DNA from: Escherichia phage E20
Sequence record: OP745616
DNA length: 64,000 nt
Reading direction: 5' to 3' (one strand)
The translations under genes and the position numbers were made by a program. Numbering within the stretch: the stretch's first letter is position 1; the number at the start of each line of letters is the position of its first letter. A model generated the notes under the pieces. That model was not told the origin of the DNA and ran no database searches. It saw nothing but the letters and a program-made list of their open reading frames with translations. Positions 1,460-52,661 of this stretch are shown here, piece by piece.

Positions 1460-1468
1460 TCAACAACT

Positions 1469-1899: not shown

Positions 1900-1903
1900 G
1901 ACT

Positions 1904-2453: not shown

Positions 2454-2490
2454 GAATAGTTAGTTATGTATTTAAATAGGAGAAAGAGCC

Positions 2491-3025: not shown

Positions 3026-3037
3026 GGAATAAACAAA

Positions 3038-3259: not shown

Positions 3260-3612
3260 AACTAATTGTAGCTGGGGGACGTGACTTCACTGACACCAAT
3301 CGTATGATTGCTGAATTACAGAAGCTAGTAGAATCAGGTGAAATAACTGATTCACCTGAACTTGTATGTGGTATGGCTCGAGGAGCAGATATGCTTGCAT
3401 ATAGTCTCTGGGCTAATAACCGTATGCCTATCCACAACTTCCCAGCAAACTGGAATAAGCATGGAAAGTCTGCTGGTTATAAACGTAATCAGGAAATGGG
3501 TGAATTTGCAGATGCTGCTGTATGTTTCTGGGATGGTAATTCCAAAGGAACCAAGCACATGATTGATATCATGAATAGGCTTAATAAACCTGTATACATT
3601 GTGAGGTACTGA
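3256..3612 (+). CDS. SLOG/DUF2493-like Rossmann-fold protein (118 aa)
   Basis: MKLIVAGGRDF ... GMARGADMLAYSWA ... CFWDG pattern typical of the DprA/LOG-like phage family. Confidence 0.5.
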   Translation: MKLIVAGGRDFTDTNRMIAELQKLVESGEITDSPELVCGMARGADMLAYSLWANNRMPIHNFPANWNKHGKSAGYKRNQEMGEFADAAVCFWDGNSKGTKHMIDIMNRLNKPVYIVRY

Positions 3613-4808: not shown

Positions 4809-4814
4809 GCAATA

Positions 4815-4827
4815 GCTGCTCCGCAGC
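4815..4827 (+). promoter_or_regulatory. Putative vRNAP early hairpin promoter, copy 3: GCTGC-TCC-GCAGC followed by TTGAGGATG
   Basis: Identical 13-nt hairpin to copy 2; upstream of ORF 4842 and the RNAPII genes. Confidence 0.6.
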
Positions 4828-4841
4828 TTGAGGATGTAATC

Positions 4842-7569: not shown

Positions 7570-7575
7570 TAAACT

Positions 7576-7611
7576 GGCCTCATACCTTCGGGTATGGGGC
7601 TTTTATTTTTT
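7576..7611 (+). terminator. Rho-independent terminator
   Basis: GCCTCATACC-TTCG-GGTATGGGGC then TTTTATTTTTT. Confidence 0.7.
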
Positions 7612-7613
7612 GC

Positions 7614-7811
7614 TTGGAGGTAGTCAACATGCCAGACATCTATGATGTTATTACTAAAACCGTACTGATAGTTTTATCTGCTATTGTGATACTCACTATA
7701 GTTAACGCCCACAAATCCAAGTTTGCTTATTGCTACTATGGAGCATACTCTGCCGGATGTTTTGTATTAGCCGGTTGGATAGCTTACTGGATTTACCACA
7801 TCAACAACTAG
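7614..7811 (+). CDS. Small membrane protein (65 aa)
   Basis: Hydrophobic segments; bracketed by two terminators. Confidence 0.45.
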   Translation: MEVVNMPDIYDVITKTVLIVLSAIVILTIVNAHKSKFAYCYYGAYSAGCFVLAGWIAYWIYHINN

Positions 7812-34291: not shown

Positions 34292-34364
34292 TACCCGGTA
34301 GGCTTAGTGGCAAAGCCCCACTAGTAAACTAACTAGGACGCAGGTTCGAATCCTGCCCGGGTAA
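34292..34364 (+). tRNA. tRNA-like gene; canonical acceptor, D and T arms, but anticodon loop folds as 6 nt
   Basis: Perfect 7-bp acceptor TACCCGG/CCGGGTA, D-arm GGCT-TAGTGGCAA-AGCC, T-arm GCAGG-TTCGAAT-CCTGC; anticodon stem CTAGT/ACTAG with loop AAACTA. Confidence 0.45.
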
Positions 34365-34373
34365 TCATACTAT

Positions 34374-34447
34374 GTCCACTTAGCTTAGACTGGGAAAGCA
34401 ACCGACTAATAATCGGAAGGTCACTGGTTCAAATCCAGTAGTGGACA
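34374..34447 (+). tRNA. tRNA, anticodon AAT by hand fold (would read Ile codons if A34 modified); needs tRNAscan confirmation
   Basis: Perfect 7-bp acceptor GTCCACT/AGTGGAC, D-arm GCTT-AGACTGGGA-AAGC, anticodon arm ACCGA-CTAATAA-TCGGA (C32 U33 ... A37 A38), T-arm ACTGG-TTCAAAT-CCAGT. Confidence 0.55.
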
Positions 34448-34683
34448 CCCATTCAGCAGTAACATAGTCCTGATTGCATAGCACTCTAAAGACAACACTG
34501 GTAAGACAGTCCAGTGGCTGCTAATGTATTGTTATTCCCCTCGACGGGAATTTCGCTAGTGAAGGTAACACTTAAAAATCCAAACCTACGTCTTACTACT
34601 ATCGGGCTATCAACCCACGGTCGCTTAACCCACTAGTGGTAGTAGTTTGACGGCCTGCCTCGTTGACTGCGTTAAAGTCACTA

Positions 34684-36629: not shown

Positions 36630-36635
36630 ATTAGA

Positions 36636-36666
36636 AGCCCCTCCTTTGAGGGGCTTTTTTATTTTA
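36636..36666. terminator. Bidirectional terminator at the convergent junction of plus-strand genes and minus-strand late genes
   Basis: AGCCCCTC-CTTT-GAGGGGCT flanked by A-rich upstream and TTTTTTATTTT downstream; overlaps vRNAP stop. Confidence 0.7.
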
Positions 36667-39600
36667 GTTTACTAAGTTCATCCAAGGGTTCAGGTTGTGA
36701 GCACGAAGACCCTGACCAAAGCCCCAAGAGTAATCCAGACTACCCTTAGCAGCAATACTAAAGATGTTGTCCTGAATAGGTAAGCCAACGTTACCAAACA
36801 TGGTAGGGGTTGGAGCCAGCATCGCCATTGCTGCATGAACCGGGTTGTTACGAATCATGGACACTGCAACCTTAGCTGAACGAATCTTAAAGTTGTAGAA
36901 CCACATCAAACCAACACTTTCCATATACCCACGGAAGCGACCTGGTAAACGGTCATAGTTAACGAACTCTTCCGTTACACGTCCCAGTGCTTCTTCACGA
37001 GTCTTACCTTTACGCTGAGTCAGTTCATCATAGATGATTGCTTTAGCGATGAAGTCGGAGTACTCAACAGTCTTCTGGATACCCTGGAACAAAGCAGTAT
37101 CCTTAGTGATAAGTGCATAACGACCAGCAGTACGTACAGACTTAGGTAATTTATCAGCCAGCTTTTCCATGTATTCGTGAAGTTTGCCCTCAGTAATCAA
37201 GATGTCATCACGACCAATACCAGCATCTGCAATTGAAGAGAACTCACCTGCTTCTAACAGAGGCCAGATACTCATACGCTTATGGCTATCAGTAATAGAC
37301 TGAATTTCAGCCTTAAGTTTACGAATCTGGTTCGGGTTAGTAGCTGCACGTAATTCTGCTTCTGCATCTACCTGACGCAGACGAGATTTAAGATACTGGT
37401 TAATCTCAGCAGTTTTCTGTGGAATGCTCTTAGCAATATTCTTAACAGGTACACCACGAGCAACCATCTGGTAAAGGTTAGCCAAGAAGTTAACAGCAGG
37501 TACGACTACTGACTTAACTACAATCAGCGTCTTAGCTTCTTTAACTAAGTTTTGAACCAGGTTCTCACCACCCATTGTGTACTTATAAGCACGGTTGCCA
37601 AATACACCCAGCATAGCTTTCTTGAAGGTATCCAATGTTTCCGGGGACCAACGAGAATTACCTGACCAGGCATCTCCAACGGAAGCTGCACGATAACCTA
37701 GTGCATCATTCAGCATGTCACGACGTACCCACAGTTCACCTTCACCGAACAAACTCTCTGCTTTCTGGCGTGTTTCACTATTCATCAGCTTAAGAGCATC
37801 AGCAGTTACTGGGTCCAGTTTAGAACCAAGAAGGTTAACGTACTGGGACTTATTAGCAGAAGACATCTTAATGTCATTCTCATACATGCTATGCAGGTTC
37901 TCAATCAGCATATCGTTGAAACGCTGAGCCTTAGCTTCTTCCACCTGACGACCACGCCATACACCTATTGCACGGGCAAGATGGTTTTCACCTTCAATGT
38001 GTTTCAGCATGTTAGGGTCAATGGATTGTTCATAGGCAACCACATTACCTTTATCGTCATATACAGGCATCAGTGGTTCATTACCACGTTCCCCACGAGC
38101 CAATGCTTTAGTGATACGGTCTACGGAAGGCTTGTCAGTAATACGACCAGCTACCATGGAACCCATCGTAAAACCTGTGCCGATGTCTACACCACCAGCA
38201 GTATTGCGAACGTTTTGTAGGATACCCTGTGAGAAAGGAGCTTGTGCCTGTACCGGTGCAAAATAGTAGCTACGTGCTGGACCACGATTAGCGGAGCTAC
38301 CTTGATAAGTACCCAGACGTACATAGGACTTCTCAATCAAATCACCAAACTGACTATCTTCAGCAACAATCAGATTAACACCTTGTTTAGTCTCACTCGG
38401 GATATGTCCTTTGTACTGGTTCAAGGTTGCACGCATATCAGATTTGGCTTTAGCCATTTCATCTTTACGCTGACCAACCAGGTAAGAAGTAGCAAAATCC
38501 ATTCCATCAACTTCTGATTGAGCCAGTGAAGATAACATCTCACGGTCGGACTTGTTCATTGCTTCCAGTGCATACAGGGTAATCAGCTTATCCAGTTGAG
38601 CTACATCTACAGTAGAACGAGCAGCCTGACGTTCGCCCAGCATACGGGAGATTGCAGTAGCATTACGCAGCAGGTTATTACCGACTGTACCGTTAATCAT
38701 GAACTGAGCCAGTTGCTTAGATTTACGACTAATCAGAGGCCAGTTACGGCCTGCTTGTTTCTGTAAATCTGCTTCCAGCTTATTCACTTCACGGTCAACA
38801 ATCTTCTGGTCAGACAGCAAGTCACGGATTTCAGCCAGAGACATGGTGTCACGCAGAACAGCCAAATCAGTTTTACCCATACCAGTGTGCATTGCTTTCC
38901 ACTCATCGTTAGTCAGCTTACGGCTGAACTTAGATGCGATAGTGGTAGGCAGATGTTCACGGAACTGCTGACGATCTGCCTGCACCTGTGCACGCACTGC
39001 TTTAATCAAATCGTATACAGAAGCATTACTCTTAGTACGACCAGTTAAGTCATTAACCAGGTCATGGAAAGGTTGCCATACCTTACCCTGGTTCATTGCA
39101 GCCATAACACCTTCAGCTACGATTGCACCATTCTTCTCTGTAGCAATAGCAGCTATCAGTTGTGCAGCATGAGCAGCACCTTTGACCAATGGATTCTTGG
39201 TATTAGCTGCAACTTCACGAGCACTTTCTAAAGCACGGGTAGACAGTGCATCAATAGAATCCACCAGATACTGGTTAGAACGGTCAATAGCATTACCACT
39301 AGGAGTAGCAACAGAATCATATAATGACTGTGCATTGAGGCTAGTCTGCATGATTGTTTGAGCCAGTGCATCCATACCTTCCTGTACGTTGGTAGCTTTA
39401 GTGTCACCTGCTACACGGGCATTCAAGCTAGACATTGCAGCAGTACCGATGTTAGTCAGCATTGCATCAATGGTATTCCCAGATTTCTTATCTGCTTTCA
39501 TAACAGGAATGTTAGCCAGTACGTTACGTACTTCTTCGCTTACCATTGCCAGACCAACAAAGGTAGGCAGTAAGGAAGAACGACCCTGTGCGTCAAACTC

Positions 39601-42600
39601 AATATTGTTAGCACCCATGATGGTATCGAACTTCTGCTGAGCATAGTAACGGTCAGCTGGGTTAGTGCTATCCGGGTCAGCCATGAATGCTTCAACTGTC
39701 AGGTTCTTAGTAACGTGTGCATAGTATTCCTGTGCCCGAGAAAGAGCAGCCGGACTAATAGCAGCTTCAATAGCCAAAGCAGCAACGATATTAGTGAACA
39801 GGCGTTGTTCCTGCATATTCATAGTAAAGCCATGAGCCTGAACATCACGGGTTACTTTAGTTGCATTCACTACTGCATCAGAGAACTTACCTTTACGAAT
39901 TACTTGCTGTACTGGTTCAGAACCAATGTAGTTAGTAATCAGTTTGTCAAAAGTCTGTCCCAACTCTTCCAGACGGATATTGTCACCATACGCCTTGTTA
40001 TGGAACAAGGTAGTGTCTTTGGATACAGCAGCCGTAGGAGCCTGTCCACGCATAACTACAGAAGAGTTAAACAGCAAGCCGGAGAACATATCATCTGCAT
40101 TAGCAGGTGCTTTCTTACGACCAAATACCAGACGCTTGATTGCCTCATACACAGACTGAACCATAGTTTTCAATGCAGTGGTTTTCTTCTGCTTACCAAT
40201 CAGTTCACGGTTGGTTAAACCCCAAGCCATATACTCATTCAGTGCAGCAGCTTTAGCCATTGCAGGTTCAATAAAGCCATTAGACAAGTGACCGTTAATG
40301 GTATTGAGAGCATCAGCATATGCTTCACGTACTGCCGGGGATTCATTCTTAACATCCAGAGTACGGAACTGGTTCATCAGGTCTTCAATATTCTGAACTG
40401 CTTCATTAGGAGTACCCTCATAGTGAGCCAGTACAGATTCAAAAGTAGAAGCATGTACTAATTCATGAACCAGAGTCTCTAAGGAAGGGGTAACTAAGTA
40501 GATGGTCTTATCATCAAAGTTAGTCCAGCCATATGCATTACCAGCTTCGGCAGCTTCAATATCTTCTGGTGCTGGGCGAGTAATGTTCTTCTCAATAGCA
40601 TAAGCATCCAGTTGAGCAGGAGTACCGTAAACAACCTTGTAGTCTTTAGCAGCAAGGGATTTCTGTACTTCTTTCAATACTGCTTGCTGTTCAGGAGACA
40701 TCTCTTTAGCCAGCCTAGTGATAGCAGTATTGGACAGCATACGTACACCAGACTTCAGTACACGACCAACCTGTTCCATTGCTGGTACTTCTTTAACAGG
40801 TACTTCTTTCACTGGTTCTGCTTTAGCAGCACGTACTGCATCGCGACGCTTGTTTAATTCAGCATCAAACAGTTCGTTCAGCTTAGCTACTTGCTGGTCT
40901 ACAGTCAGACCTTCCAGAGAGATTTTACCGTTGTTCACATAAGGAGCACCCACAGCAGCCATCTGATCAACAGTGGTCTGTACCTGGTTCATTACTTTGT
41001 GGCGAATATCTACACCCAGAGCAATGTTACGCAGGTTACGTTCAATAAGGTTAACACCGGAATTCTTAATCATATCAATCTTATACTGCCTGTCTCCCTC
41101 AACACGACTGATATGAGAAAGCTGTTCAAAATCCAAAGCAGAACGGGCAATGTCATCAATTGTCTTATCCGACAACTTATTAAAGTCTACGTTCTTCATG
41201 AACTTAGAGAAGGAGTCATAAACATTCTTGATAGGATTACCCTGCCAAGAAGTATATACAGCCTCATTAGCTTTACGGCTTGCATCAGTGATGTCATTGA
41301 TACCAATGTTCATACCATCAAAGATTTTCAGGGTATTCTTCGGTGCACCTTTCATAGTAGAAAGGGTCTGCATCATCATGCCATCACCAGTACCAATGGT
41401 CATAAATGGAATACCTGCAACACCTGCTTGTGAAGGAGCATAGACGCTCATTGGCACACGCATACGGTCATCTAAGTTGGTAGCCAGTACTTGGTTAGCA
41501 ACATCAGTATTCTCACTACCAGCAATGTAGAAAGTTTGTGAGCCAGTCTCAATCATTGGAGCCAGTGGAGATAATGATTCCTGGATTTCATTAAGTTCTT
41601 TCTGCGTTAAGAAATCGCCCTTCTTCCAGGTTGGGTCTTTTTCTTTTTCTGCTAGTTTAGCCTGTACTGCTTGTTGGAACATATCCTGCAATACTAAAGA
41701 CTGAATTTGAGTAGCCTTCTGCAAGTTCTCAGTGGAGTGCATCAGACCTTCACCAACAGTGAACCGGATACTTTGTCTCATTGGTTCAACGAAGAAGTGC
41801 AACATATTCTCTTGTAAGTTCTTAAGGGCATCACCAGATACAGTAAACTCCTGGGGATCTAACTCACCAGTCAGAGCACCATCTACCTCCTTAATAAATA
41901 ACTTACCTTTACGCTTGGCTGGAATTTTACCAGTCAGTGCTTCCATAGAAGTAAGGAAAGTATCCAGCATAGCCTGAGCATCCGCTTCAGACGCAGCCTC
42001 CTTACCAAACATTGCCATAGCTGGGGAAATGCTAGGGTCAGCAGCACGTGCTTGCAGAACGTCACTGAGGCGTTCATAGATGGTATCAGTAATTGCACTA
42101 ACCATCTTGCCAGCAATACCACGAGCACCAGAACCATAGATGGTAATGGTCAGTGGGTTTTTAGCTATACCACGTTTCAGGTCCAGAGTACCGTCTTCAT
42201 TCAGGTTAAAGTCTTTAATGAACAGGTCCATTAACTTCTGGAGATGATTCATCTGGCTCATAATCGGAACGTTGTTACGGTAAGCACTACGTAATTCATT
42301 TAGATAGAATTGCAAACTATTGGTAGATGCTTCATATAAGTCAATGCTGTCATCATATGAATGATGTTCATTCATAGTCTTACCGGCTTTACCGAAGAAC
42401 AAGCCACCCTTAGCAGTATTCTTAATCCAATTTTGGGTGAACTTACCACCAGTCATTAATACCATTGCGTTGATTGGGCCGTTGGTTACACCATCAGCTT
42501 CGACATACAGTGGGGTATTAAAGTTGGCACGGTCATCGCTGTTCAGGTAACGGGCATATTCCATCAGAGCCATGAGAGCTACAAAGGATTTGTTATCACC

Positions 42601-45600
42601 CAGGGAGGACTTCAGAATATCTACTGCATCTGTGGGTAAGTAACCAGACTTATTAAATTCAACCATCATATCAACAGCAGGCTTCAGATTGCCTTCCAGA
42701 GCTTTGGTCAGATTTTCAGACATAGCTTCACGGGACATTTTATGTACCTTAATGCCTAATGCCTGAGCCAGTCCCAGCTGGAAGTCAGAGAACGCTTGGC
42801 TATTTTCATTACTCAGGTCAATAGTAGAGAAGGTTGGCAGAATTGCTTCACGAACCAGCTTACTGGATTGTGGGTTGTTCTTACCAAGCATCTGCATACG
42901 ACCTACTCGGGTCATGTTATAGCCATAGTGAATGGGGGTATCCAAACCATTCTCTTGTTCTTTTAGCTGATTAATTAAACCGAACAAGGAATCATATGCC
43001 ATAGATACTGATAAGTTCTTACCTTCCAGTGATTTGGCATTGTTCTTATTCAGCAAATCGGGATTAAGAGTACCAGCACCCATTAGTTCCAGAATGCTGT
43101 CTCGACCCAATGCTTCATAGAAGTTAACCATCGGCATGTGTACACGGAACTCAGTAGCCTGTTCAGCTTTCAGTGCAGCTTTCTGTTCGGGGGTATTCTT
43201 AACAGCAGGATTACGTAACTGAGTTTGGGCCACGGAAGGAATGTCGTCACCAAAGTACATTTTCTCTTCCGGATTTACCAACACAGCTTCTTCAATTGCT
43301 GTAGGGAAATTATTAATAGGGTCTTTATCAGCCAACTTATTAATAGTGTACAGACCAATAGTCTTATTAGAGTCCGGGTCAATCTCAGACACATCCAGCA
43401 TAGTCTCTGTAACTGCACCCATCTCAATGAGGGAAGACAGAATCTCTGTAGCCATTGCCACTGGAATGCCTTTTGTATAACCCAGTGGTGCATTAGGGTT
43501 ACGATTCAAACCCCAATAAGATTCAATCTTCTGAGCCAGTGAGCTAGTAGCTTCGACCAGGGTCTGGGCATTCTCAAATTCAGCCAGAATACTTTCTGGT
43601 AACAAGGATGCTTCTACTCCAGTAATGGCAGCTACGTCTTTTATGTCTTTAATGGCAGCATTCTGTGCAGCAGTCAGTCGCCATTGCAGACCAGCAAGCA
43701 CGGCAGTCTCTAACAACTGGTCATTGAACTTAAAGGTATCACCATCTTTTTCAACGATATTCAGCAGTTTGCCACCTACCCAACGGTTAGCTTCAGTACC
43801 TTCTGCAAAACGTTTACCAACGTTCTTATTAGCAAGGAACTTAGCCAGTCGTTCAGACAGAGTAGTCTTCAGTGTTTCCCCAAAGTCCATCAAATCTTGG
43901 TAACGTTCTAACACATCACCCGTGAGAGCGTTATTTTCTTTTTGAGTGAATGCTTCAAAGCGAGCAGCAGAAGACAGTGCTTGCTTAATATCAGCTAAAG
44001 GAGATTCAGAACCAATGGTACGGGACTTGGGTTCTTCTGGCAGGGTAAATGCTTTCAGGAACTGGTTCGGTGTCTTTTCATTGTTATAGACAGGGAACAC
44101 TGTTTCCATCTCAGAAAGAGGTTTGCCACCTACTGTATAATCTGCTTTTAGCTGAGCCAGCGATACTTCATCTTTCTCCACGTTGTTAGTGTTACGGCCA
44201 GAGGTATCTACACCAACCAGAATCTGTGCATTATTGGCTTCAACGAAAGATTGAACAGTATTGAATTGTTCAGCGGTCAGCTTTTGATTATCAAACAGTT
44301 GTAGGGACACAAACGGTTGTTCACTGCCTTTATAGAAAGTAGAGCGAATAGAACCAGTATCCAAAGACATATCACGATAGCCATCATGCCCAAATACGTC
44401 AGACAGGCTGATATGGTCGCCATTAGAACCAACCACAGTACCATCAGCAAACAACCACGGACTCTCTCTACGGTCACCACTCTTATTAAGAGTTTCCTGT
44501 GAAATGGTATTTTCTTTCACATAAGCATCTCTTTCAGATTCAGTAGGTTGCTCAATGGTATCCTCATTAGTGAGGGTAGCATCTACTGTTTCAGGCTTAG
44601 TAGTAGAAACTTCTTCTGTTTTTGGGCTAGTCTCCTTAGTAGGAGCAGTCTTATTTTCTACCACTGGTTTAGCTTTAGGCTGTACAGTAGTAGTGTCCTC
44701 TTGCACTGGTGCAGGAGTTTCATCAACCTGATTCACTGGTTCATTAGTCTGTTGAGACTGAGTGGCATCAAGACCACCTTGACGGAACTCTTTAACTACC
44801 TGGGCAGCAGGCTTGTTCAGACGTGAATCCAACGAGGTAACTTTCACATGAGAAACATTAAGCTCCGGGTAAGCCGTAGCAAGTGCATTAGCAATATCAG
44901 CTACGGTCTTGGCTTCCAGTCCTACTTGCTGGGCAAACTTAACAGACTTGGTATCATACGGATTGACACCGAGGCCAGTACGACTACGTACCCATTCACG
45001 GGAAGGCGAGAGAGCCTGATAATGAACAGACTTATTCTTATCCGCATTCCCCGAAATCAGATGCTCATTCAACGCTCCGACCTTATTCTGCATGTGCTGG
45101 GCGAACTTCATAAAGTCGCTCAGATAAGCGGAGGCCAAATCGAAGTTACCAGAGTTATACGCAGAACGAATGCGTTTCGCATGTTGCAACGCAGAGTACT
45201 GTCCTTCATTAGAACGAGACTCATCGGTTTTAATCTGTTTACTAACAATGTCTTGAGGACGTAAGCCTAGTTCTTCTGCTTTAGCGTCGAACTCACGTGC
45301 ACCCTGTAACAAGGCAGCAGCAGATTGCAGGGCAGCACGTTGACGATTCCCTAATGTAATCTTACCTTCACTCGCATGTTTCAGAATCATGTTAACTGAA
45401 TCTGCATCCAGTACTTCTGGAGACACATCAGCAGCCATAGCAATATTGTTTGCTTGGGCTTGATTAGCTTCTTCAGTAGCTTTCAGCTTACCTGCTTCAG
45501 CCTGTTCCTGAATCATGGAATGGATGGCACGGAATGCACGAAGTACTTTAGGGGTATTCTGTACGTTAGCCATCAGGCCAGAGAACTGGTCTACGATTGC

Positions 45601-47496
45601 AGCAGCAGGGGAACCTTGTTCCAGATTAGCCAGAGCACCCGGGTCACGGTTAATGAAGCTATCCATAGACATGATGTTGTCGTACATCTGGATTGCAGCT
45701 TCCATTTGAACGTTGGGGTCTTCGGCAGTATTAACCAAGTCAGCCATCTTCTGAATAGCTTCTACACGGTTAGTGGAACCAGAAACAGCTTCACGGATTA
45801 CTGGGTTAACTTGTTCCAGTTCTACTGGGTCAAACTTCATTGCCTGAGTTAAGTCAGCAGCATACTGGGTAGCAGCAGCTTTCTCTTCCGGAGAAATATC
45901 CATTGCATCTACTGCTTCCTGTACAGTTGCTTGTGCTTGTTCTGCCTGAGCAGCAGCTTCCTGTGCAGCAGCATTAACCGTAGCATCAGCTACAGGGGAT
46001 GCTTGTTCATTACGCTTGGCAACTTCTTCACCACGTTGAACCAGAATGTTAGTAAGAGGAGATGCAGCTTTTGCTAGTGTTTTACCAACCAGAGAAGCAC
46101 CAGCCAGGGTAGTACGAAGAGTAGGGCCAGCAGCAGCACCGGCAGCTTTAACAGTTGCACCAGGGACTTGAGCAACTCCAGCACTACCGAAGCCATAAAG
46201 TGCACCAAGACCTGCTTGCTCACCAACCCCTTTGAGGGTGTCACGGGATGCATCAACGTTTTCTTTGATTGCAGTATTCTGTGCGAACTGACCAAAGCCG
46301 GATTGAATACCTTCCTCTACAGTTTCACGCAGCATATTAGAACCAGCACCTGCCAGTGAACCTACCTTAAGTGGGTTAAGTTCAAAGCGAGATACCAGTG
46401 GGCCGGTAGCAGCAGCAACTGGAGCAGTTAAGCCAGCAGCAATGATACCTGTTTCAGATGCAGTCTGACGACGTGCTTCATCAGGAGATAAACCATCAGC
46501 AATATGCTGTTGGTAAACAGGAGACTTACTTGCCAGTTCTTGGTGGGACATCTTCATGATTTCAGAAGCAGTCTGTTGGTATGCACCACCAGCTTCCATA
46601 CCACCGATTGCAATAGCAGGTGCAGCAACACGACCAGCAGACAGTGCAACCTGTGCAGGACGTGAACCTAACCCAGCAGCTAAGGTAATACCCTTAACAG
46701 CTTTATCACCACCTACCATTACTTTACCGAGTGCAGATACACCACGAATAAGTGGACCACCGGTAAAGAGGGAACCAACACCTTCACTCAGTCCGTCAGA
46801 GGCAGCCATACCATTATCAAGTGTATTAGCAACAGAATCGAAAGCATCACGACCAATACGAGACAAGGAGGCAACCAAATCGTTCTCCCCATTTTTGATG
46901 TCTTGTTCATAAAGTTTCTGATTCTTTTGAGCAGAAATCTGGTTCTGATTCTGAACAACCTTACGGGTAGCATTCAGTGCATCAGACTGTAGATTGTGTA
47001 CGCCTTCATTCAACCAATCCATCCCGGAAGCAATGGTTGCCCCGGCATTATCATTGACCAAACCTGTGCCAAGAGCAGCAATGCCCCCAAGGGTATTAGC
47101 AACACCAAGACCAACACCAGAAAGAGTATCGCCAAATGCTTCTGCGTTAGTACGTTGTTTAGATAAGTCCTGACGTACAACATCCGCAGCATTAGCTCGG
47201 CTATTAAGAATTTGTAGACCTTGCTCATTACCGTATTTATTAATGATTTCTAATGGGGAGGCTTGAGTGAAATCTGCCTGAAGTGAACCTGGTTCGAATG
47301 CACCGATTCCAAGATTACCTACACGTCCGGTCTGGAGATTGTAAGCATTCTCTGGGGTTAATTGGAAAGGGATTTGCCCTTGTGCAGCTTGCTTCTGAGA
47401 GGTTGCAGTAGAGACATCGACTCGCTTAGCATTAGTGATGCTGTCTGCGAAACCTGCCAGACGGTCAAATGTTGACATAGCATGTTTCCTGTTCAA
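36664..47496 (-). CDS. Virion-encapsidated giant RNA polymerase (vRNAP, N4 gp50-like), 3610 aa
   Basis: Single 10.8-kb ORF; central T7-like RNAP motifs (A-like EADGVTNGPINAM, B-like KNPLTITIYGSG, C-like KIFDGMNIG); position at distal end of late operon. Confidence 0.9.
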   Translation of the reverse strand: MNRKHAMSTFDRLAGFADSITNAKRVDVSTATSQKQAAQGQIPFQLTPENAYNLQTGRVGNLGIGAFEPGSLQADFTQASPLEIINKYGNEQGLQILNSRANAADVVRQDLSKQRTNAEAFGDTLSGVGLGVANTLGGIAALGTGLVNDNAGATIASGMDWLNEGVHNLQSDALNATRKVVQNQNQISAQKNQKLYEQDIKNGENDLVASLSRIGRDAFDSVANTLDNGMAASDGLSEGVGSLFTGGPLIRGVSALGKVMVGGDKAVKGITLAAGLGSRPAQVALSAGRVAAPAIAIGGMEAGGAYQQTASEIMKMSHQELASKSPVYQQHIADGLSPDEARRQTASETGIIAAGLTAPVAAATGPLVSRFELNPLKVGSLAGAGSNMLRETVEEGIQSGFGQFAQNTAIKENVDASRDTLKGVGEQAGLGALYGFGSAGVAQVPGATVKAAGAAAGPTLRTTLAGASLVGKTLAKAASPLTNILVQRGEEVAKRNEQASPVADATVNAAAQEAAAQAEQAQATVQEAVDAMDISPEEKAAATQYAADLTQAMKFDPVELEQVNPVIREAVSGSTNRVEAIQKMADLVNTAEDPNVQMEAAIQMYDNIMSMDSFINRDPGALANLEQGSPAAAIVDQFSGLMANVQNTPKVLRAFRAIHSMIQEQAEAGKLKATEEANQAQANNIAMAADVSPEVLDADSVNMILKHASEGKITLGNRQRAALQSAAALLQGAREFDAKAEELGLRPQDIVSKQIKTDESRSNEGQYSALQHAKRIRSAYNSGNFDLASAYLSDFMKFAQHMQNKVGALNEHLISGNADKNKSVHYQALSPSREWVRSRTGLGVNPYDTKSVKFAQQVGLEAKTVADIANALATAYPELNVSHVKVTSLDSRLNKPAAQVVKEFRQGGLDATQSQQTNEPVNQVDETPAPVQEDTTTVQPKAKPVVENKTAPTKETSPKTEEVSTTKPETVDATLTNEDTIEQPTESERDAYVKENTISQETLNKSGDRRESPWLFADGTVVGSNGDHISLSDVFGHDGYRDMSLDTGSIRSTFYKGSEQPFVSLQLFDNQKLTAEQFNTVQSFVEANNAQILVGVDTSGRNTNNVEKDEVSLAQLKADYTVGGKPLSEMETVFPVYNNEKTPNQFLKAFTLPEEPKSRTIGSESPLADIKQALSSAARFEAFTQKENNALTGDVLERYQDLMDFGETLKTTLSERLAKFLANKNVGKRFAEGTEANRWVGGKLLNIVEKDGDTFKFNDQLLETAVLAGLQWRLTAAQNAAIKDIKDVAAITGVEASLLPESILAEFENAQTLVEATSSLAQKIESYWGLNRNPNAPLGYTKGIPVAMATEILSSLIEMGAVTETMLDVSEIDPDSNKTIGLYTINKLADKDPINNFPTAIEEAVLVNPEEKMYFGDDIPSVAQTQLRNPAVKNTPEQKAALKAEQATEFRVHMPMVNFYEALGRDSILELMGAGTLNPDLLNKNNAKSLEGKNLSVSMAYDSLFGLINQLKEQENGLDTPIHYGYNMTRVGRMQMLGKNNPQSSKLVREAILPTFSTIDLSNENSQAFSDFQLGLAQALGIKVHKMSREAMSENLTKALEGNLKPAVDMMVEFNKSGYLPTDAVDILKSSLGDNKSFVALMALMEYARYLNSDDRANFNTPLYVEADGVTNGPINAMVLMTGGKFTQNWIKNTAKGGLFFGKAGKTMNEHHSYDDSIDLYEASTNSLQFYLNELRSAYRNNVPIMSQMNHLQKLMDLFIKDFNLNEDGTLDLKRGIAKNPLTITIYGSGARGIAGKMVSAITDTIYERLSDVLQARAADPSISPAMAMFGKEAASEADAQAMLDTFLTSMEALTGKIPAKRKGKLFIKEVDGALTGELDPQEFTVSGDALKNLQENMLHFFVEPMRQSIRFTVGEGLMHSTENLQKATQIQSLVLQDMFQQAVQAKLAEKEKDPTWKKGDFLTQKELNEIQESLSPLAPMIETGSQTFYIAGSENTDVANQVLATNLDDRMRVPMSVYAPSQAGVAGIPFMTIGTGDGMMMQTLSTMKGAPKNTLKIFDGMNIGINDITDASRKANEAVYTSWQGNPIKNVYDSFSKFMKNVDFNKLSDKTIDDIARSALDFEQLSHISRVEGDRQYKIDMIKNSGVNLIERNLRNIALGVDIRHKVMNQVQTTVDQMAAVGAPYVNNGKISLEGLTVDQQVAKLNELFDAELNKRRDAVRAAKAEPVKEVPVKEVPAMEQVGRVLKSGVRMLSNTAITRLAKEMSPEQQAVLKEVQKSLAAKDYKVVYGTPAQLDAYAIEKNITRPAPEDIEAAEAGNAYGWTNFDDKTIYLVTPSLETLVHELVHASTFESVLAHYEGTPNEAVQNIEDLMNQFRTLDVKNESPAVREAYADALNTINGHLSNGFIEPAMAKAAALNEYMAWGLTNRELIGKQKKTTALKTMVQSVYEAIKRLVFGRKKAPANADDMFSGLLFNSSVVMRGQAPTAAVSKDTTLFHNKAYGDNIRLEELGQTFDKLITNYIGSEPVQQVIRKGKFSDAVVNATKVTRDVQAHGFTMNMQEQRLFTNIVAALAIEAAISPAALSRAQEYYAHVTKNLTVEAFMADPDSTNPADRYYAQQKFDTIMGANNIEFDAQGRSSLLPTFVGLAMVSEEVRNVLANIPVMKADKKSGNTIDAMLTNIGTAAMSSLNARVAGDTKATNVQEGMDALAQTIMQTSLNAQSLYDSVATPSGNAIDRSNQYLVDSIDALSTRALESAREVAANTKNPLVKGAAHAAQLIAAIATEKNGAIVAEGVMAAMNQGKVWQPFHDLVNDLTGRTKSNASVYDLIKAVRAQVQADRQQFREHLPTTIASKFSRKLTNDEWKAMHTGMGKTDLAVLRDTMSLAEIRDLLSDQKIVDREVNKLEADLQKQAGRNWPLISRKSKQLAQFMINGTVGNNLLRNATAISRMLGERQAARSTVDVAQLDKLITLYALEAMNKSDREMLSSLAQSEVDGMDFATSYLVGQRKDEMAKAKSDMRATLNQYKGHIPSETKQGVNLIVAEDSQFGDLIEKSYVRLGTYQGSSANRGPARSYYFAPVQAQAPFSQGILQNVRNTAGGVDIGTGFTMGSMVAGRITDKPSVDRITKALARGERGNEPLMPVYDDKGNVVAYEQSIDPNMLKHIEGENHLARAIGVWRGRQVEEAKAQRFNDMLIENLHSMYENDIKMSSANKSQYVNLLGSKLDPVTADALKLMNSETRQKAESLFGEGELWVRRDMLNDALGYRAASVGDAWSGNSRWSPETLDTFKKAMLGVFGNRAYKYTMGGENLVQNLVKEAKTLIVVKSVVVPAVNFLANLYQMVARGVPVKNIAKSIPQKTAEINQYLKSRLRQVDAEAELRAATNPNQIRKLKAEIQSITDSHKRMSIWPLLEAGEFSSIADAGIGRDDILITEGKLHEYMEKLADKLPKSVRTAGRYALITKDTALFQGIQKTVEYSDFIAKAIIYDELTQRKGKTREEALGRVTEEFVNYDRLPGRFRGYMESVGLMWFYNFKIRSAKVAVSMIRNNPVHAAMAMLAPTPTMFGNVGLPIQDNIFSIAAKGSLDYSWGFGQGLRAHNLNPWMNLVN

Positions 47497-47547
47497 ACTT
47501 ATATCGTATATAGGTAACTTACTCTACAGTAAGCCAGTGTAAGAAAA

Positions 47548-47568
47548 AAGCCCCGTAGGGCTTTTATT
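47548..47568. terminator. Hairpin/terminator between virion protein gene and vRNAP gene
   Basis: AAGCCC-CGTA-GGGCTT with A-run on one side and T-run on the other. Confidence 0.5.
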
Positions 47569-47572: not shown

Positions 47573-49537
47573 TTACCGATTTTGTCTTGGTTGCATATAC
47601 TCGGGCAGTCCTTGTGCCTGACGTAAGTATCGTGCAGCACGCTCTTCATCTTCCTTGGCTCGTGCCCTGTCCACACTAGCCTGTGACTGGAAACCTCTTG
47701 GAGCCAGGTTAGCTGGGTCAGCTTGAACTTGTGCCTGTGCAGCTTGGAGCATTGCAGCAGCTTTAGTAACAGCTTCCTGTCTTGCAGGTAACAATGCAGT
47801 AAGACCTGTTTGTCCGGTGTTAATCTTATTCTGGGTATTTGCCAGTGCAGCTACAGCAGCATCATATGCAGTCTGTGCTGCCTGAATATTCTGCATAGCT
47901 TGAGCACGACCCAGGTTACGAACACTACCTTCCAGTGGCTCTCCCCGTTTCACACCCTCAATTAACTGTTCTACCTGACGGTCATTAAGACGCATACCAT
48001 TACCAGCTTCATTGGTAATGAATGGGTTAACTGCATCAATAGCACGGCTAATATAACCCTCCGGTACACCAGTCTGTGCACGTTGCATAACAGCAGCAGC
48101 CATAGCTGGTGACATATTCCCACGTTGAGAAATATCATTCAGTCGGTTCAGTACCCAGTTACGGTCAGCACCTTTAAAATCACCCTCCAACAGACGGTTA
48201 GCAATCTCACCTACTGGGGTATTATCAGTGACAGTACCAAGGAAGTCGGTGTTAAGACTACCGGTGTTATCCTGCATAGAACGAGTACCAATCATACCAG
48301 TAGCCAAAGTAGATACTGCCTGATTACCTTGATTATTCTGAACCATAGCGAGTGGGTCAGCCCCCACTTCTGCTTGGGCAATAACAGGTTTAATCTGTTC
48401 CCAAGTCATATCCTTATAAGCACCCGGAGTAGAGTTAGGTAGAGCAGCCCAGGTATCTTTAAGATTACCATTCTTGCGAGACTCGAAGATAGCCTTACCA
48501 ATCTTATCCTGGTTCTCAGGAGAAAGCGGCTGGCTTTGCCAATCTGAACCAAGAACTTTAGGAGCGAAGTCTTGCAGAGTAGCTTGGTTAATCTGGAATG
48601 CACCAACAGGTGAAGCACCCTGGTTCGTCTTCATACCTTCTTGATGCTTAACTACATCACCAATACTCATTTGAGTAATAGGAGTAGAAGTACCAGCAAA
48701 CTGGTAAGTAACATCATAAGGGGAACCCTGACGTGTACCAGCAGTACCCGGAGCAGATGCAGCACCCACACCATTACCGTATACACCCGGGTAAGCACTA
48801 GCCAGTAATCCCTGCAAACGTGCCTGTGCAACCGGGGACAGGTTCTTACTATATGCTTCTGCCAACAGACGGGCATCATTAGGGTTCTCAGCACCACGGG
48901 TAATCTGTGACATTACACCCATAGCAGCCTGACTATCAGCATCATTACGCTGAGCAACACCTAAATCAAAACGATTCTGAGCTTGATTAATAGCCTGACC
49001 ACCCTGACCTTGAAGACTACTCAGCATGTCCAATTGCTGGTTAGCAGGGAGTGCAGACAATGCATCACGGGTCTGACTTAATGCAGCATTAATACGGTTC
49101 TGGTCACCGGACTGATAAGCCTCAGACAGTAAACGAATAGCAGGGGAAGCATTATCTAATGCAGAGTTAGTATCCTGCAAACGTCCAAAGATATAAGCAT
49201 TGTAGTCATTGGTTCCCTGCTGACCTTGTTGAGTCAGTAATGTACCTGCTCTCTCGTCCAGATTCTGGAGAGTACGCTGGTTTATCAGTGAAGGGTCAAC
49301 CCCCTGAAACAATGCACCAGATGCTAAAGCATTACGGTACTCATTCGGGTCTTGATACTGCATAGCATTCATCATGACGGCATTGCCAGCCTCCTGCTTG
49401 GCAGCGTTCTGGAAATTACCCAGTGCATCACTTAAGCCGGAGGTGGCGTTACCAATCATGTTGCCAAATGTGCGAATGCTGTCACCAACTCCAGAGAAGT
49501 TAGGTGCATCAACATTTCTCCACGTTATCTGAGCCAT
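47573..49537 (-). CDS. Virion protein (N4 gp51-like), 654 aa; possible lytic transglycosylase-like segment
   Basis: Synteny; Q/N/A-rich; segment EG...GASPVGAFQINQATL loosely resembles SLT-domain core. Confidence 0.5.
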   Translation of the reverse strand: MAQITWRNVDAPNFSGVGDSIRTFGNMIGNATSGLSDALGNFQNAAKQEAGNAVMMNAMQYQDPNEYRNALASGALFQGVDPSLINQRTLQNLDERAGTLLTQQGQQGTNDYNAYIFGRLQDTNSALDNASPAIRLLSEAYQSGDQNRINAALSQTRDALSALPANQQLDMLSSLQGQGGQAINQAQNRFDLGVAQRNDADSQAAMGVMSQITRGAENPNDARLLAEAYSKNLSPVAQARLQGLLASAYPGVYGNGVGAASAPGTAGTRQGSPYDVTYQFAGTSTPITQMSIGDVVKHQEGMKTNQGASPVGAFQINQATLQDFAPKVLGSDWQSQPLSPENQDKIGKAIFESRKNGNLKDTWAALPNSTPGAYKDMTWEQIKPVIAQAEVGADPLAMVQNNQGNQAVSTLATGMIGTRSMQDNTGSLNTDFLGTVTDNTPVGEIANRLLEGDFKGADRNWVLNRLNDISQRGNMSPAMAAAVMQRAQTGVPEGYISRAIDAVNPFITNEAGNGMRLNDRQVEQLIEGVKRGEPLEGSVRNLGRAQAMQNIQAAQTAYDAAVAALANTQNKINTGQTGLTALLPARQEAVTKAAAMLQAAQAQVQADPANLAPRGFQSQASVDRARAKEDEERAARYLRQAQGLPEYMQPRQNR

Positions 49538-49549
49538 GATGGTTTCCTA

Positions 49550-50014
49550 TTAACGGGTTAGTTTATTAGCTGCAATGTAAGCATCAGCTGAAGACTGGTC
49601 ACGGTTCTCTGCTGTAGCACGACTACGAGCACGGTCTTCCAGTGCAGTGTTATAAGACTTAATCTGGTTATTCAGGTTAGTGTTAGTAACACTCTTAGTA
49701 AAGTTCAACTGGTCTTTGGCTAACTTGTTAGCCTGGAAACCACTATAGATACCAGCTAAGGAACCAAGTGCACCAAGTCCTAGTTGGAAGGTAGGTACAT
49801 TCATACCAAACTGATTAGCTGAACCAGACAAGAAAGAGGTAGGGGTAGTTAACCCTGTACCTGCATTCATACCAATAGCTGCACCGGGGGCATAGTTCAT
49901 AGCTGGGGTATTAAAGTTCTGATTGTTATTAGACATCCAAGACATAGCCGCTGGCTGTGGGGTTTGGTTGCCTGTTAAGAATGACAAATCCATAGGGATT
50001 CTCCTGTTAAACAA
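49550..50014 (-). CDS. Virion protein (N4 gp52-like), 154 aa
   Basis: Synteny; Gly/Asn-rich. Confidence 0.45.
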   Translation of the reverse strand: MFNRRIPMDLSFLTGNQTPQPAAMSWMSNNNQNFNTPAMNYAPGAAIGMNAGTGLTTPTSFLSGSANQFGMNVPTFQLGLGALGSLAGIYSGFQANKLAKDQLNFTKSVTNTNLNNQIKSYNTALEDRARSRATAENRDQSSADAYIAANKLTR

Positions 50015-52661
50015 GGTCAGTATTAAGAGTCATATCAGAGTAGCTGCCAACCATGTTTAAAGACATGTCAGCTATATCCGAACCAGTCATAAGAGTACGT
50101 GAGAGGAAAGAATCCAACGACTCCATTGACACAAATTGCATAGGGTCAATTACACCCTGCCCAGCAGTACCAAACATTTCTTCATACTGCTTATTGATTG
50201 CCATCATATCAGTATTGTACTGCTGCATTACATTCTCTGCTTTCTGAATAGTAACAGCCGTAGATGCATTAATATACTGGCTAATGCCGTTACCTACTGA
50301 ACTGGTAAGTTGCATGATGTTCTGAGCATTCATCATTTCACTGGCTAAAGTAGATAAGGATGTACCAGTAGACAGAGCAGTACCAACGTTCATGGCTACC
50401 ATTGAAGCAACAGCAGCAATGATAAAGCCTAGCTTATCACCAAAGAGTGAAGTGGATACTTTAGTGATAATAGATACCAGAATCATTGCAGCAATGGCGT
50501 TTGCTACAGCACCTACTATTACAGCAGCCAATCCAACAAAACCAAGTGATGCACCAACTGCACCGTATGCCCCAAGAATACCTGCACCACCAGCACCCAT
50601 AGTGAATACGGATACAACAACAGCAACTACAACAACCACAATCTTAAAGGCAGATGTTGTATACCATTTCTGCTTAACTTTCTTATATGAGTTCATTACT
50701 AAGTAGGAACAAGCAGTAGACAGTTGAGTACTACGAGTCAGTGACATTGAACGGTAGATGTTAGTGTGCAGTGGGATAATGAATCCACTCTCTTCTGCAT
50801 CACCCATTGCTTCAGCAACATCAATGCTTACTGACTTATTTTTATATACCCTGTTATTGTGATTTAAACCAAGTACCCTAAGTTTACGGTAGGTATTGTT
50901 ACCATCCTGCCAAAGCAATTCATACTCCTGCATAGAATAAAACGTAGTGGTAACTTCCAGTTTCTTAGTCGAACCAGAGTTACTAGCAGTTCGTATATTC
51001 TTACGGGTAAGTGTTATATCTCCTGCATACCTGGCTCGAAGTTGCCCTTGCTTAGCACCAGTCCATGCTTCACCGGAATGGGTAGTTTCAGACGCATAGT
51101 TCCACCCAATGGTCATGTCGTACTTGTACTGTTTATTACTATGTACCCTAAACTCTCGCTTAGGTATAACAGGGTATTCTGGAAGAGGTGGAGGTGTTCC
51201 AACAGTTTGACCTTCCTGCCTGTTCCACCATTCTACGTATGCATCAACTGCATCATTTGCTGCCTGATAACCTGCAATCACTGCTTCCAGTGTGGGGTAG
51301 GTTGGGTCAGGTGGGAATGCTTCAGTAGCCATCTGAAAGAAACGGTAGATGTATTCCTTAGCAGTATCCTCAGGAGTATTAAGAGATACACCGAATGTGC
51401 CATAGATGTATTGGATATCACCTATGTCGTCATTCTTCTTAAGCTCAGTCACTACTTTATTGAGCTTACCACCAGTAGCTTTATAGAGTGCCTTCTTGCA
51501 GTGAGGGTAGATTGGGTCATTCTCTACCCATTGCTTATCATTCCTGATTGGAATGAATGGATAGAATCGGTTATCAGTAGCTTCAGTCTCAAACAGAGAA
51601 TCGAGTGCAACGTTGCCAGAGTTCTGCTTATAGATAAGCATCTTAGGTGTACCAACAGCAGTCATCTCAGTATCAGTACGAGTAGTCTGGGATGAGTACT
51701 TACGAACCAGTGTCTCTGTAGTTGTAGTGATTGTATCAGTGCGAGTAACACCTCCACCTAAATCAACAACATTGGTAGTTACAGTAGTACTGGATTGAAT
51801 CTCACCAAACTTTGTATGAGTCATTACCCTGTCAGATACAACTACAGTTACATCATCAGGTTTCTCAGTGAACCCTCTACGGTAAACCTTAACGTAAGAG
51901 TTCCAGTTATCCACACTTGGTTCAGTAACAGTACTGTCTTCATCCGGTCTACCATCAGAGTAAACAGAATGAGTCTGTATAGTCTTAGTAAGATTGGTTG
52001 TGTTAGCTGTCGTATCGCTTGAGATGGTAGTCCACAACAAAGTAGACGGTAAGTCATCCTCGTCATCATAGACAGTAGTCGGTCCTACTACTGGTGGATT
52101 AGTAGCTGGGGACTTATAGAATGTGTAATCAGCATAGAGGTATAAAGCACCTGGTTCAAAGTTAGTAGGTGTGAATGTAATGGTAGAACCTCCATCCAGG
52201 GAGGTCATAGTAATTTCATTAGTATCCTCATCAATGTCTACGTCGAATCGTTCCATGATTCGACTTGGGGCATTCTCGTAAAGATACTGATCACACCATT
52301 GCTCAAAGTCAGCAAAGCCAATCTCTGCTGCCTGAACATAGACTGATTCACCAGCAGGTGGAGTAATTTGACCCTCTATAACAGTAGGGTCAATCTTAGC
52401 CAGTACACCTAATGAAGAACCTGCCATACCAACTTCTGAGTCATAGTGGTTCTTACTCCAGCTGGAGAACAGTCGCATACGAATACCAGGCCCATTCAGA
52501 TAACTATCAGAGATAGTGTCTGCCATAGTGAAACCTGTATCAGCAACAATCTTACCGATGACTACAGTCTTCATATAGTTTGGACGCTTATGAATATCCC
52601 CTGCCATGTTATAGACAGAGGATGCTACGTATACTTTGGTCTTCCCACTGAATAAGCCCAT
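50007..52661 (-). CDS. Large virion protein with C-terminal Gly/Ala-rich multi-TM region (N4 gp53-like), 884 aa
   Basis: Synteny; C-terminal KIVVVVVAVVVSVFTMGAGGAGILGAYGAVGASLGFVGLAAVIVGAVANAIAAMILV hydrophobic cluster. Confidence 0.5.
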   Translation of the reverse strand: MGLFSGKTKVYVASSVYNMAGDIHKRPNYMKTVVIGKIVADTGFTMADTISDSYLNGPGIRMRLFSSWSKNHYDSEVGMAGSSLGVLAKIDPTVIEGQITPPAGESVYVQAAEIGFADFEQWCDQYLYENAPSRIMERFDVDIDEDTNEITMTSLDGGSTITFTPTNFEPGALYLYADYTFYKSPATNPPVVGPTTVYDDEDDLPSTLLWTTISSDTTANTTNLTKTIQTHSVYSDGRPDEDSTVTEPSVDNWNSYVKVYRRGFTEKPDDVTVVVSDRVMTHTKFGEIQSSTTVTTNVVDLGGGVTRTDTITTTTETLVRKYSSQTTRTDTEMTAVGTPKMLIYKQNSGNVALDSLFETEATDNRFYPFIPIRNDKQWVENDPIYPHCKKALYKATGGKLNKVVTELKKNDDIGDIQYIYGTFGVSLNTPEDTAKEYIYRFFQMATEAFPPDPTYPTLEAVIAGYQAANDAVDAYVEWWNRQEGQTVGTPPPLPEYPVIPKREFRVHSNKQYKYDMTIGWNYASETTHSGEAWTGAKQGQLRARYAGDITLTRKNIRTASNSGSTKKLEVTTTFYSMQEYELLWQDGNNTYRKLRVLGLNHNNRVYKNKSVSIDVAEAMGDAEESGFIIPLHTNIYRSMSLTRSTQLSTACSYLVMNSYKKVKQKWYTTSAFKIVVVVVAVVVSVFTMGAGGAGILGAYGAVGASLGFVGLAAVIVGAVANAIAAMILVSIITKVSTSLFGDKLGFIIAAVASMVAMNVGTALSTGTSLSTLASEMMNAQNIMQLTSSVGNGISQYINASTAVTIQKAENVMQQYNTDMMAINKQYEEMFGTAGQGVIDPMQFVSMESLDSFLSRTLMTGSDIADMSLNMVGSYSDMTLNTDLV

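Follow-up and report, generated by a model that had tools for sequence, protein, structure and literature searches.

What does a single 10.8-kb open reading frame (ORF) of Escherichia phage E20 encode, and where does its product depart from gp50, the virion RNA polymerase (vRNAP) of phage N4? The sequence analysed is a stretch of 64,000 nucleotides (nt) from record OP745616, hereafter the window, and the ORF occupies positions 36664-47496 of its minus strand. We conclude with high confidence that its product is the gp50 ortholog of a G7C-like coliphage (Schitoviridae, genus Gamaleyavirus), an RNA polymerase encapsidated in the virion. The gene itself is already known and is near-identical to deposited, annotated sequences. 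The part worth further study is an orphan module within it, here called Insert A, together with the idea that the linker holding it, linker 1, is a slot for cargo. The reading of Insert A that we favour, at a probability of roughly 40-50%, is that of a cargo or effector module carried by the vRNAP into the cytoplasm, which would stand outside the transcription machinery and act early, at the DNA entry site.

Identification of an N4-type virion RNA polymerase gene

The ORF is not explicable by chance, because the probability of 3610 random codons without a stop is about 1e-75. Four Pfam families, vRNAP_dom_2, vRNAP_plug, N4_RNAP_helical and vRNAP_dom, matched amino acids (aa) 1431-2174 with E-values of 1e-25 to 1e-100 (88-336 bits against a cut-off of 27), and PHROG 2206 "virion RNA polymerase" matched across aa 25-3603. 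A phmmer search of the PDB retrieved full-length N4 gp50 (11gp and 9pnq-9pnw, including 9pnr; E = 0), which covered aa 1-996 and 1136-3603, and also the mini-vRNAP crystal structures 2po4, 3c2p and 3q0a (E = 0). All catalytic residues are kept, namely R1527 of the T/DxxGR motif, D1662 of motif A, K1773 and Y1781 of motif B, and D2054 of motif C; these correspond to R424, D559, K670, Y678 and D951 in mini-vRNAP numbering, all in contexts identical to N4. The residues of the -11G recognition site (W129, K114 and R119 in mini-vRNAP numbering) are likewise kept in N4-identical contexts. An HExxH motif (HELVH, aa 2338-2342, nt 40453-40467) is present in 8 of the 8 vRNAPs aligned. It was assigned to a zincin-like peptidase by Iyer et al. 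2017 (PMC5512222) and placed in subdomain C1 of the C-terminal domain (CTD) by Bellis et al. 2026 (PMC13434306).

The gene is 96.6% identical in DNA to that of Escherichia phage vB_Eco_F22 over 100% of its length, and the window is therefore that of a G7C-like Gamaleyavirus; the F22 and G7C records are both classified as Schitoviridae, Enquatrovirinae, Gamaleyavirus. DNA identity to Bas96, G7C and PhAPEC5/7 is 92-95%, and 88 phage records match. At the protein level, MAFFT alignment gave identities of 98.9% to F22, 98.1% to Bas96, 95.8% to PhAPEC7, 94.2% to G7C, 90.5% to EC1-UPM and 66.7% to N4. The gene adjoins homologs of gp51-gp53 in the late block, in synteny with G7C and N4. The first-pass annotation, made from the letters of the window, had taken the ORF for an N4-like giant virion RNA polymerase with a central T7-like core, a claim that hung on alignment to the central domain of N4 vRNAP. 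The ORF aligns with N4 gp50 from end to end, its Pol domain is 70.2% identical and the mini-vRNAP is matched, so the claim holds, and we find no evidence against the vRNAP assignment.

Orthologous vRNAP genes are misnamed in several GenBank records (e.g., MZ394712 of U1G, OM982646 of ST4, MH358458 of phi G17 and JX415535 of ECBP1), where they are labelled "DNA polymerase", "translation initiation factor 2", "gram positive anchor domain protein" or "hypothetical protein". In the pSb-1 record, the vRNAP gene is split into three coding sequences.

Translation start and domain organization

In the ORF listing, the frame comprises 3610 aa from a TTG codon. This TTG, at 47496, is merely the earliest possible start past the upstream stop and is probably not the true one. 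An ATG lies six codons inward, at 47478, with the Shine-Dalgarno sequence AGGAAA 6 nt 5' of it. Starting there, the N terminus of the E20 vRNAP reads MSTFDRLAGFADS, that of N4 gp50 being MSVFDRLAGFADS, and the annotated starts of orthologs agree with ATG 47478 when N termini are compared. Because of this Shine-Dalgarno sequence and the N-terminal match to N4 gp50 and the annotated orthologs, the product most likely has 3604 aa, with a mass of about 392 kDa. The first pass had thus given the coordinates and length of the ORF exactly, without stating the strand, and the length of the protein needs the probable correction to 3604 aa. Domain bounds were transferred from the N4 structures obtained by cryo-electron microscopy (cryo-EM), in which the N-terminal domain (NTD) spans 1-906, the linker 907-1006, Pol 1008-2104 and the CTD 2123-3500 (PMC13434306, PMC13492108), with linker 2 at 2102-2123 (PMC13434306). 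The gene and its parts are as follows.

36664-47478, minus strand: vRNAP (gp50 ortholog) coding sequence, most likely from ATG 47478-47476 to TAA 36666-36664, 3604 aa
47485-47490, minus strand: probable Shine-Dalgarno sequence AGGAAA (from the sequence and ortholog N termini)
44776-47478, minus strand: NTD, aa 1-901, putative membrane-associating ejection/anchor domain, 60.3% identical to the N4 NTD (role from PMC13434306)
44503-44775, minus strand: low-complexity part of linker 1, aa 902-992, rich in T, E, P and V (from composition; equivalent to N4 linker 907-1006, PMC13434306)
44116-44502, minus strand: Insert A, aa 993-1121, a predicted folded alpha/beta module of about 14 kDa (from the indel map against N4)
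40819-44112, minus strand: Pol (mini-vRNAP) domain, aa 1123-2220, corresponding to N4 1008-2104 (Pfam; 70.2% identical to N4)
40774-40818, minus strand: linker 2, aa 2221-2235, short P/V/K/E repeats (from alignment; 58% identical to N4 over 12 residues)
36667-40773, minus strand: CTD, aa 2236-3604, comprising C1 with HELVH and a large helical C2, putatively autoinhibitory and for encapsidation, 69.5% identical to N4 (roles from PMC13434306, PMC13492108, PMC5512222)

The NTD contains Gly/Ala-rich hydrophobic segments at aa 123-141, 237-255, 277-295 and 344-362. Linker 1 as a whole (aa 902-1122, including Insert A) is 47% identical to N4 across 95 alignable residues. The Pol domain includes W1233, the residue that stacks on -11G (W129 in mini-vRNAP). 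The CTD had been called an encapsidation domain at first pass; it does align with that of N4, and its role has been refined by the 2026 cryo-EM work, which shows that it autoinhibits Pol (PMC13434306, PMC13492108). Linker 2 differs in length in nearly every relative, F22 having five more residues and EC1-UPM another repeat count.

E20 vRNAP and N4 gp50 (UniProt Q859P9) belong to the same length class and share a colinear order of NTD, linker, T7-like Pol, linker and HExxH-containing CTD, the same gp51-53 neighbours, and a genome with (in E20, candidate) hairpin early promoters of the same geometry. However, E20 carries about 125 extra residues at the end of linker 1, an insertion of 9-10 aa within a divergent patch at aa ~2100-2145, and a shorter linker 2. 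The Gamaleyavirus vRNAPs of F22, Bas96, G7C (gp50), EC1-UPM, PhAPEC5/7 and SP5M share 90-99% protein identity with it, and gene position and flanking terminators are identical. The right-hand fold and the T/DxxGR, A, B and C motifs of T7 RNA polymerase and the mitochondrial single-subunit RNA polymerases are all kept, whereas just ~1100 of the 3604 residues correspond to T7 RNA polymerase. By analogy with N4, the E20 enzyme would further differ from that of T7 in being packaged in the virion, in using hairpin promoters on single-stranded templates and in being autoinhibited by its CTD.

An insertion at the Pol-proximal end of linker 1

Comparison with N4 gp50 had been proposed as a way to find lineage-specific insertions, and it revealed, besides small indels, a single large insertion in the linker between NTD and Pol, about 125 aa long. 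The phmmer alignment to N4 gp50 is broken between aa 996 and 1136, and MAFFT alignment of eight vRNAPs places the insertion, Insert A (aa ~993-1121), at the Pol-proximal end of linker 1. Of these eight, E20, F22, G7C, Bas96 and EC1-UPM have it and N4, PhAPEC7 and SP5M do not; other Gamaleyavirus relatives, including IME11 and phi G17, also lack it. By tblastn, Insert A was found in 28 phage records representing 19 distinct phages, all Gamaleyavirus and always within the vRNAP gene. Its presence does not track overall similarity: PhAPEC7, which lacks it, is nearer to E20 (95.8%) than EC1-UPM, which has it (90.5%). Mosaicism extends to the low-complexity linker, which is N4-like in EC1-UPM.

The junctions of Insert A show neither a clean excision nor a microhomology footprint. 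Phages without the insert have another left flank (QEVAETKT versus EQPTESERDAY...), and a GAGATG repeat lies out of frame, so that no footprint of a simple deletion is seen. Because both junctions can be aligned with the N4 linker, the module may have been gained and then secondarily lost or replaced.

At the end of Pol, G7C-like phages carry the patch at aa 2100-2145 (41044-41181, minus strand) as either of two alleles that differ sharply, an N4-like one that is 10 aa shorter and the longer form carried by E20. Co-variation of the patch with Insert A was perfect in 8 sequences and broke down in a larger sample, which contained 11 Insert A-positive phages with the short patch and 3 Insert A-negative phages with the long one. 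The two thus assort independently, which points to cassette-like recombination inside the gene, with both behaving as independent mosaic cassettes.

Such patchiness relative to gene similarity, and a size near that of mini-inteins, would also be expected of the remnant of a selfish element, a mini-intein or homing-endonuclease insertion, and G7C-like phages do have intron or homing-endonuclease insertions in their RNAP2 and DNA polymerase genes (bioRxiv 10.1101/542787). Nevertheless, this origin is effectively refuted. The module has no Cys and no intein blocks, and no HN[CST] occurs in aa 961-1140; with these motifs missing from Insert A, an intein or homing element was rejected. The insertion is in frame and colinear, matches no intein, HNH or nuclease family, and has junctions without a clean excision footprint. 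Its protein sequence is under purifying selection, and its homologs are ordinary domains in non-orthologous proteins or, in one case, a stand-alone gene of 166 aa (both below).

Predicted fold, conservation and selection of Insert A

AlphaFold2, run on an alignment of 19 sequences, predicted an alpha/beta fold for Insert A with a predicted local distance difference test score of 91.8 and a predicted template modelling score of 0.85, while a single-sequence run was poor. As modelled, Insert A is a real, independently folding domain. The family carries the signature GD..SPWLxxDG..GDH..TGxIR..QxLTxxQ..NP, in which S1006, P1007, L1009, G1013, D1021, H1022, R1045 and Q1071 are invariant and D1002, D1012 and G1042 near-invariant. 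Family members are moderately acidic (isoelectric point 4.3-6.0, net charge -3 to -10), which makes a basic DNA binder unlikely, and the charge is too mild for an Ocr-like DNA mimic.

The ratio of nonsynonymous to synonymous substitution rates (dN/dS) of Insert A is 0.029 against EC1-UPM, 0.090 against G7C and 0.050 against Bas96. These values are at or below the level of the Pol domain, whereas the adjacent low-complexity linker, at about 0.45, is relaxed. Judged from these sequence comparisons, Insert A is under strong purifying selection.

Insert A itself gave no match in Pfam or PHROGs, and 19 members of the family gave none in Pfam, NCBIfam or PADLOC at relaxed thresholds (for Pfam, E <= 1). 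None of the Pfam LPD models (LPD1-LPD39) matches Insert A or overlaps the module in its host proteins. The PDB contained no sequence match, structural comparison gave no significant match, and the module did not combine similarity to the PD-(D/E)xK/Hjc-like or tRNA-splicing endonuclease folds with their catalytic residues.

Homologs of Insert A in polyvalent proteins

An exhaustive HMMER search over 1.84 billion representatives found 21 proteins, 20 of which are true homologs of Insert A. The remaining one (P0020, with nine repeats) is an Ig-like repeat protein and was discarded as a false positive. A homologous-protein search with the module returned almost nothing, a scan of GTDB genomes returned no relative, and a search of IMG/VR returned G7C-like contigs only. 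The alignment of diverse homologs (A1) was too variable for pattern scans.

The proteins that host the homologs mostly have 900-3700 aa, typically at least 1000, and are giant, injected or transferred proteins of phages or conjugative elements. Their domain sets include LPD39 with SLT, helicase and methyltransferase domains; ddrB-ParB with LPD39 and methyltransferase; LPD38; LPD22; InPase; and TrwC relaxase with AAA_30. The helicase is of SNF2 type, with ResIII/Helicase_C domains. Such domains typify "polyvalent proteins" (Iyer, Burroughs, Anand, de Souza & Aravind 2017, PMC5512222), a group in which N4-type vRNAPs were already placed as combining the polymerase with a zincin-like HExxH domain and sometimes ART, lysozyme or PBECR1 (PMC5512222). 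As is characteristic of LPD-type modules, Insert A is embedded in giant multidomain proteins with known polyvalent domains. Its homologs sit in exactly such proteins, of which the P1 DarB-like anti-restriction proteins are an example, but it matches no Pfam LPD model nor any other curated family.

Three homologs are described here. The closest carrier that is not a vRNAP, P0004, has a module 60% identical to Insert A (76.7% nucleotide identity to that of F22), and its gene lies between tail and lysis genes in the late region of a temperate phage. Its helicase-methyltransferase part matches both a "DarB-like antirestriction protein" encoded by Serratia phage Parlo and a similar protein from Klebsiella phage ZX1; P0004 had no match in complete E. 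coli genomes. The second, P0011, is a stand-alone Insert A module of 166 aa on a phage-like contig, encoded between DNA_pol_B_exo2 and ParB_N genes; solo versions in phage or transfer-gene surroundings are another trait of LPD-type modules. The third, P0012, is a distant vRNAP, 22-23% identical overall and with the vRNAP Pfam domains, which carries a 35%-identical Insert A module at the same place, immediately before the Pol domain.

P0011 is located at 7294-7794 of metagenome contig ERZ23491061 scaffold_4375, directly 5' of a ParB_N/HTH_ParB gene; a Prok_Ub/Prok-E2/JAB/ThiF operon lies nearby.

The position shared with P0012 bears on another possible role. Insert A might be a regulatory accessory that docks on the Pol wrist and modulates hairpin binding, plug opening or the geometry of tethering. 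Insert A ends about 10 residues ahead of the first ordered residue of Pol, a vRNAP as remote as P0012 has its homolog at exactly the same place, and the adjoining wrist holds the site of -11G recognition (PMC13492108). We nevertheless regard this role as unlikely. Among about 20 homologous representatives, only Gamaleyavirus fragments and P0012 are vRNAPs, the others being without an RNA polymerase; the apparent co-variation with the Pol patch at aa 2100-2145 is gone in the larger sample; and other phages have unrelated modules at this site (below), as would be expected of a permissive slot more than of a dedicated regulator.

Linker 1 as an insertion slot

The length of linker 1 was measured with a query that joined the conserved end of the NTD to the start of Pol, as the span of the match; 60 of the 174 phage records were listed. 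Among the matches listed, linker 1 has ~75-120 aa in most N4-like phages, ~200-224 aa in Insert A carriers and 365 aa in G7C. In the Stenotrophomonas phages, again among the matches listed, it has ~205 aa in Pokken and Piffle and 88 aa in Paxi.

The excess in G7C includes a second insertion, Insert B, of about 143 aa, which lies in linker 1 upstream of Insert A and is unrelated to it. Among the eight aligned vRNAPs it is confined to G7C, and overall it was found just in G7C and Shigella phage B2. It had no match in Pfam and one weak match in PHROGs, to a helix-turn-helix DNA-binding protein family (E = 0.006).

aa 965-1109 of gp50 of G7C (HQ259105), also in Shigella phage B2 (OM858838): Insert B, absent from E20

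Pokken (MN062186) has an extra 117 aa at the site of Insert A, before the Pol start "...FP.L/V...F..AF.LP.EP..RTI", and Piffle likewise. This segment is unrelated to Insert A and was rejected as a homolog. It gave five Pfam matches to GNAT acetyltransferases (best E = 8e-4, all under the gathering scores) and contains a GNAT motif-A-like sequence, RGQGGARK...FYESMGF. With Insert A, Insert B and the Pokken/Piffle segment, at least three unrelated modules are therefore accommodated in linker 1. The 2026 structure papers treat this linker as a featureless tether of 100 residues (PMC13434306, PMC13492108), and we found no mention of an insertion in the linkers of G7C-type vRNAPs in the literature searched.

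A linker that varies from ~75 to 365 aa among N4-like phages (among the matches listed) also raises the possibility that Insert A is a mere structural "bead", a spacer that lengthens or stiffens the tether between NTD and Pol and has no activity of its own. Closely related viable phages without Insert A would agree with this, as would its size of 14 kDa, which fits the beads-on-a-string model of translocation (PMC13434306). Such a passive role appears improbable, somewhat more so than docking on Pol. Eight residues are invariant across homologs of 22-65% identity in unrelated host proteins, and four of these residues are polar (D, H, R, Q). The dN/dS of 0.03-0.09 stands beside a linker at 0.45, and Insert A recurs in proteins without a tether of this kind, namely relaxase, DarB-like and SLT-bearing ones.

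We tentatively propose, at slightly worse than even odds, that the Pol-proximal end of linker 1 is a general cargo slot of the Schitoviridae, that Insert A founds an undescribed family of effectors, probably enzymatic or protein-binding, and that the polymerase serves as their delivery vehicle. On this proposal, Gamaleyavirus and one distant lineage would have filled the slot with Insert A, G7C and B2 with Insert B, and Pokken and Piffle with the GNAT-like segment. The family, for which we suggest the name "SPWL-DH" module and which has a conserved D-D-DH-R-Q constellation, would be delivered into recipient cells by phages and plasmids on injected proteins.

Proposed working of the polymerase and candidate early promoters

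The steps of packaging, ejection and transcription are transferred from N4 biology (Kazmierczak 2002; PMC13434306; PMC13492108). By this analogy, a few copies of the vRNAP would be packaged in the capsid and would leave through the tail once gp52 and gp51, the proteins co-ejected with the vRNAP in N4 (PMC13434306), had been ejected. The NTD would then anchor in the inner membrane, and Pol and the CTD would refold in the cytoplasm on a flexible tether. Pol may recognise DNA hairpins extruded from the supercoiled end of the genome, leading to transcription of the early genes, with the CTD presumably holding Pol autoinhibited until a promoter is bound.

Candidate promoters were sought by geometry, as hairpins with stems of 5 bp or more whose 3-nt loop is centred on the template-strand G at -11 and which have a +1 G 11 nt downstream. 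In exactly four sites the plus-strand loop is TCC (template GGA, as in N4 P2), the stem has 5-6 bp and GGA stands at +1 to +3. Their hairpin centres lie at 25, 643, 957 and 4821, all on the plus strand and within the first 5 kb, in the early region. Under a first-order Markov model, 0.005 such sites are expected per sequence, and none of 200 simulations reached four. The stems differ in sequence from those of N4 P1-P3, but the template loop GGA is the same as in P2. The literal hairpin stem of N4 P2 is absent from the left end of the window, and the four E20 promoters are pattern-based predictions.

19-38, plus strand: candidate early promoter 1, GTTGC-TCC-GCAAC, predicted +1 (GGA) at 36 (geometry search)
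637-656, plus strand: candidate early promoter 2, GCTGT-TCC-ACAGC, predicted +1 (GGA) at 654 (geometry search)
950-970, plus strand: candidate early promoter 3, GGCTGC-TCC-GCAGCC, predicted +1 (GGA) at 968 (geometry search); directly 5' of the ORF of the RNAP1 subunit A homolog (977-1459)
4814-4834, plus strand: candidate early promoter 4, AGCTGC-TCC-GCAGCT, predicted +1 (GGA) at 4832 (geometry search)

Insert A as a possible cargo module

As cargo of the polymerase, Insert A would act by an enzymatic or protein-binding activity, in the sense that Iyer et al. proposed for the domains of polyvalent proteins (PMC5512222). An anti-defence role is plausible by analogy, because Insert A is linked to DarB-like proteins.

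Several points weigh against this picture. Insert A is dispensable, because close relatives that lack it are viable phages. A polymerase-modulating or purely structural "bead" role would also agree with its site, about 10 residues from the N terminus of Pol and shared with a distant vRNAP. Insert A could be identical with an LPD among the 40 that the supplement of Iyer et al. 2017 defines, and the absence of a known fold or family leaves it without a biochemical handle.

If the cargo reading is true, the giant polymerase would serve in addition to deliver functions of host takeover or anti-defence. Insert A is a small, tractable orphan domain common to DarB-like anti-restriction and relaxase proteins, and it could be a new early-infection effector. 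The first full-length vRNAP structures date from 2026, and the comparison of linker 1 matters a little to that field: the natural variants indicate that linker 1 tolerates, and keeps under selection, extra folded domains. Inserted domains must traverse a tail channel of ~35 Å, and the variants offer naturally occurring tests of the beads-on-a-string model of translocation.

Flanking features of the vRNAP gene

The features that flank the gene in the window are the following.

36633-36658, bidirectional: intrinsic terminator directly past the vRNAP stop, also annotated in the G7C and PhAPEC7 records
47546-47565, minus strand: terminator-like GC hairpin followed by a T-run, separating the vRNAP start from the gp51 homolog; the PhAPEC7 record has an annotated terminator at this place
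47573-52661, minus strand: upstream neighbours in the late block, homologs of gp51 (47573-49537), gp52 (49550-50014) and gp53 (50007-52661), from ORFs and synteny with G7C and N4

The window has an N4-type layout, with the early, middle and replication genes of positions 1-36600 all on the plus strand and the virion genes of 36664-64000 all on the minus strand. The two blocks converge at the bidirectional terminator, where the cumulative GC skew turns over too. Two adjoining tRNA genes lie on the plus strand at 34292-34364 and 34373-34451, where a gap separates the replication block from the vRNAP gene. The anticodon of one is undetermined and the other is tRNA-Ile(AAU); F22 annotates tRNA-Ile alone at the equivalent place.

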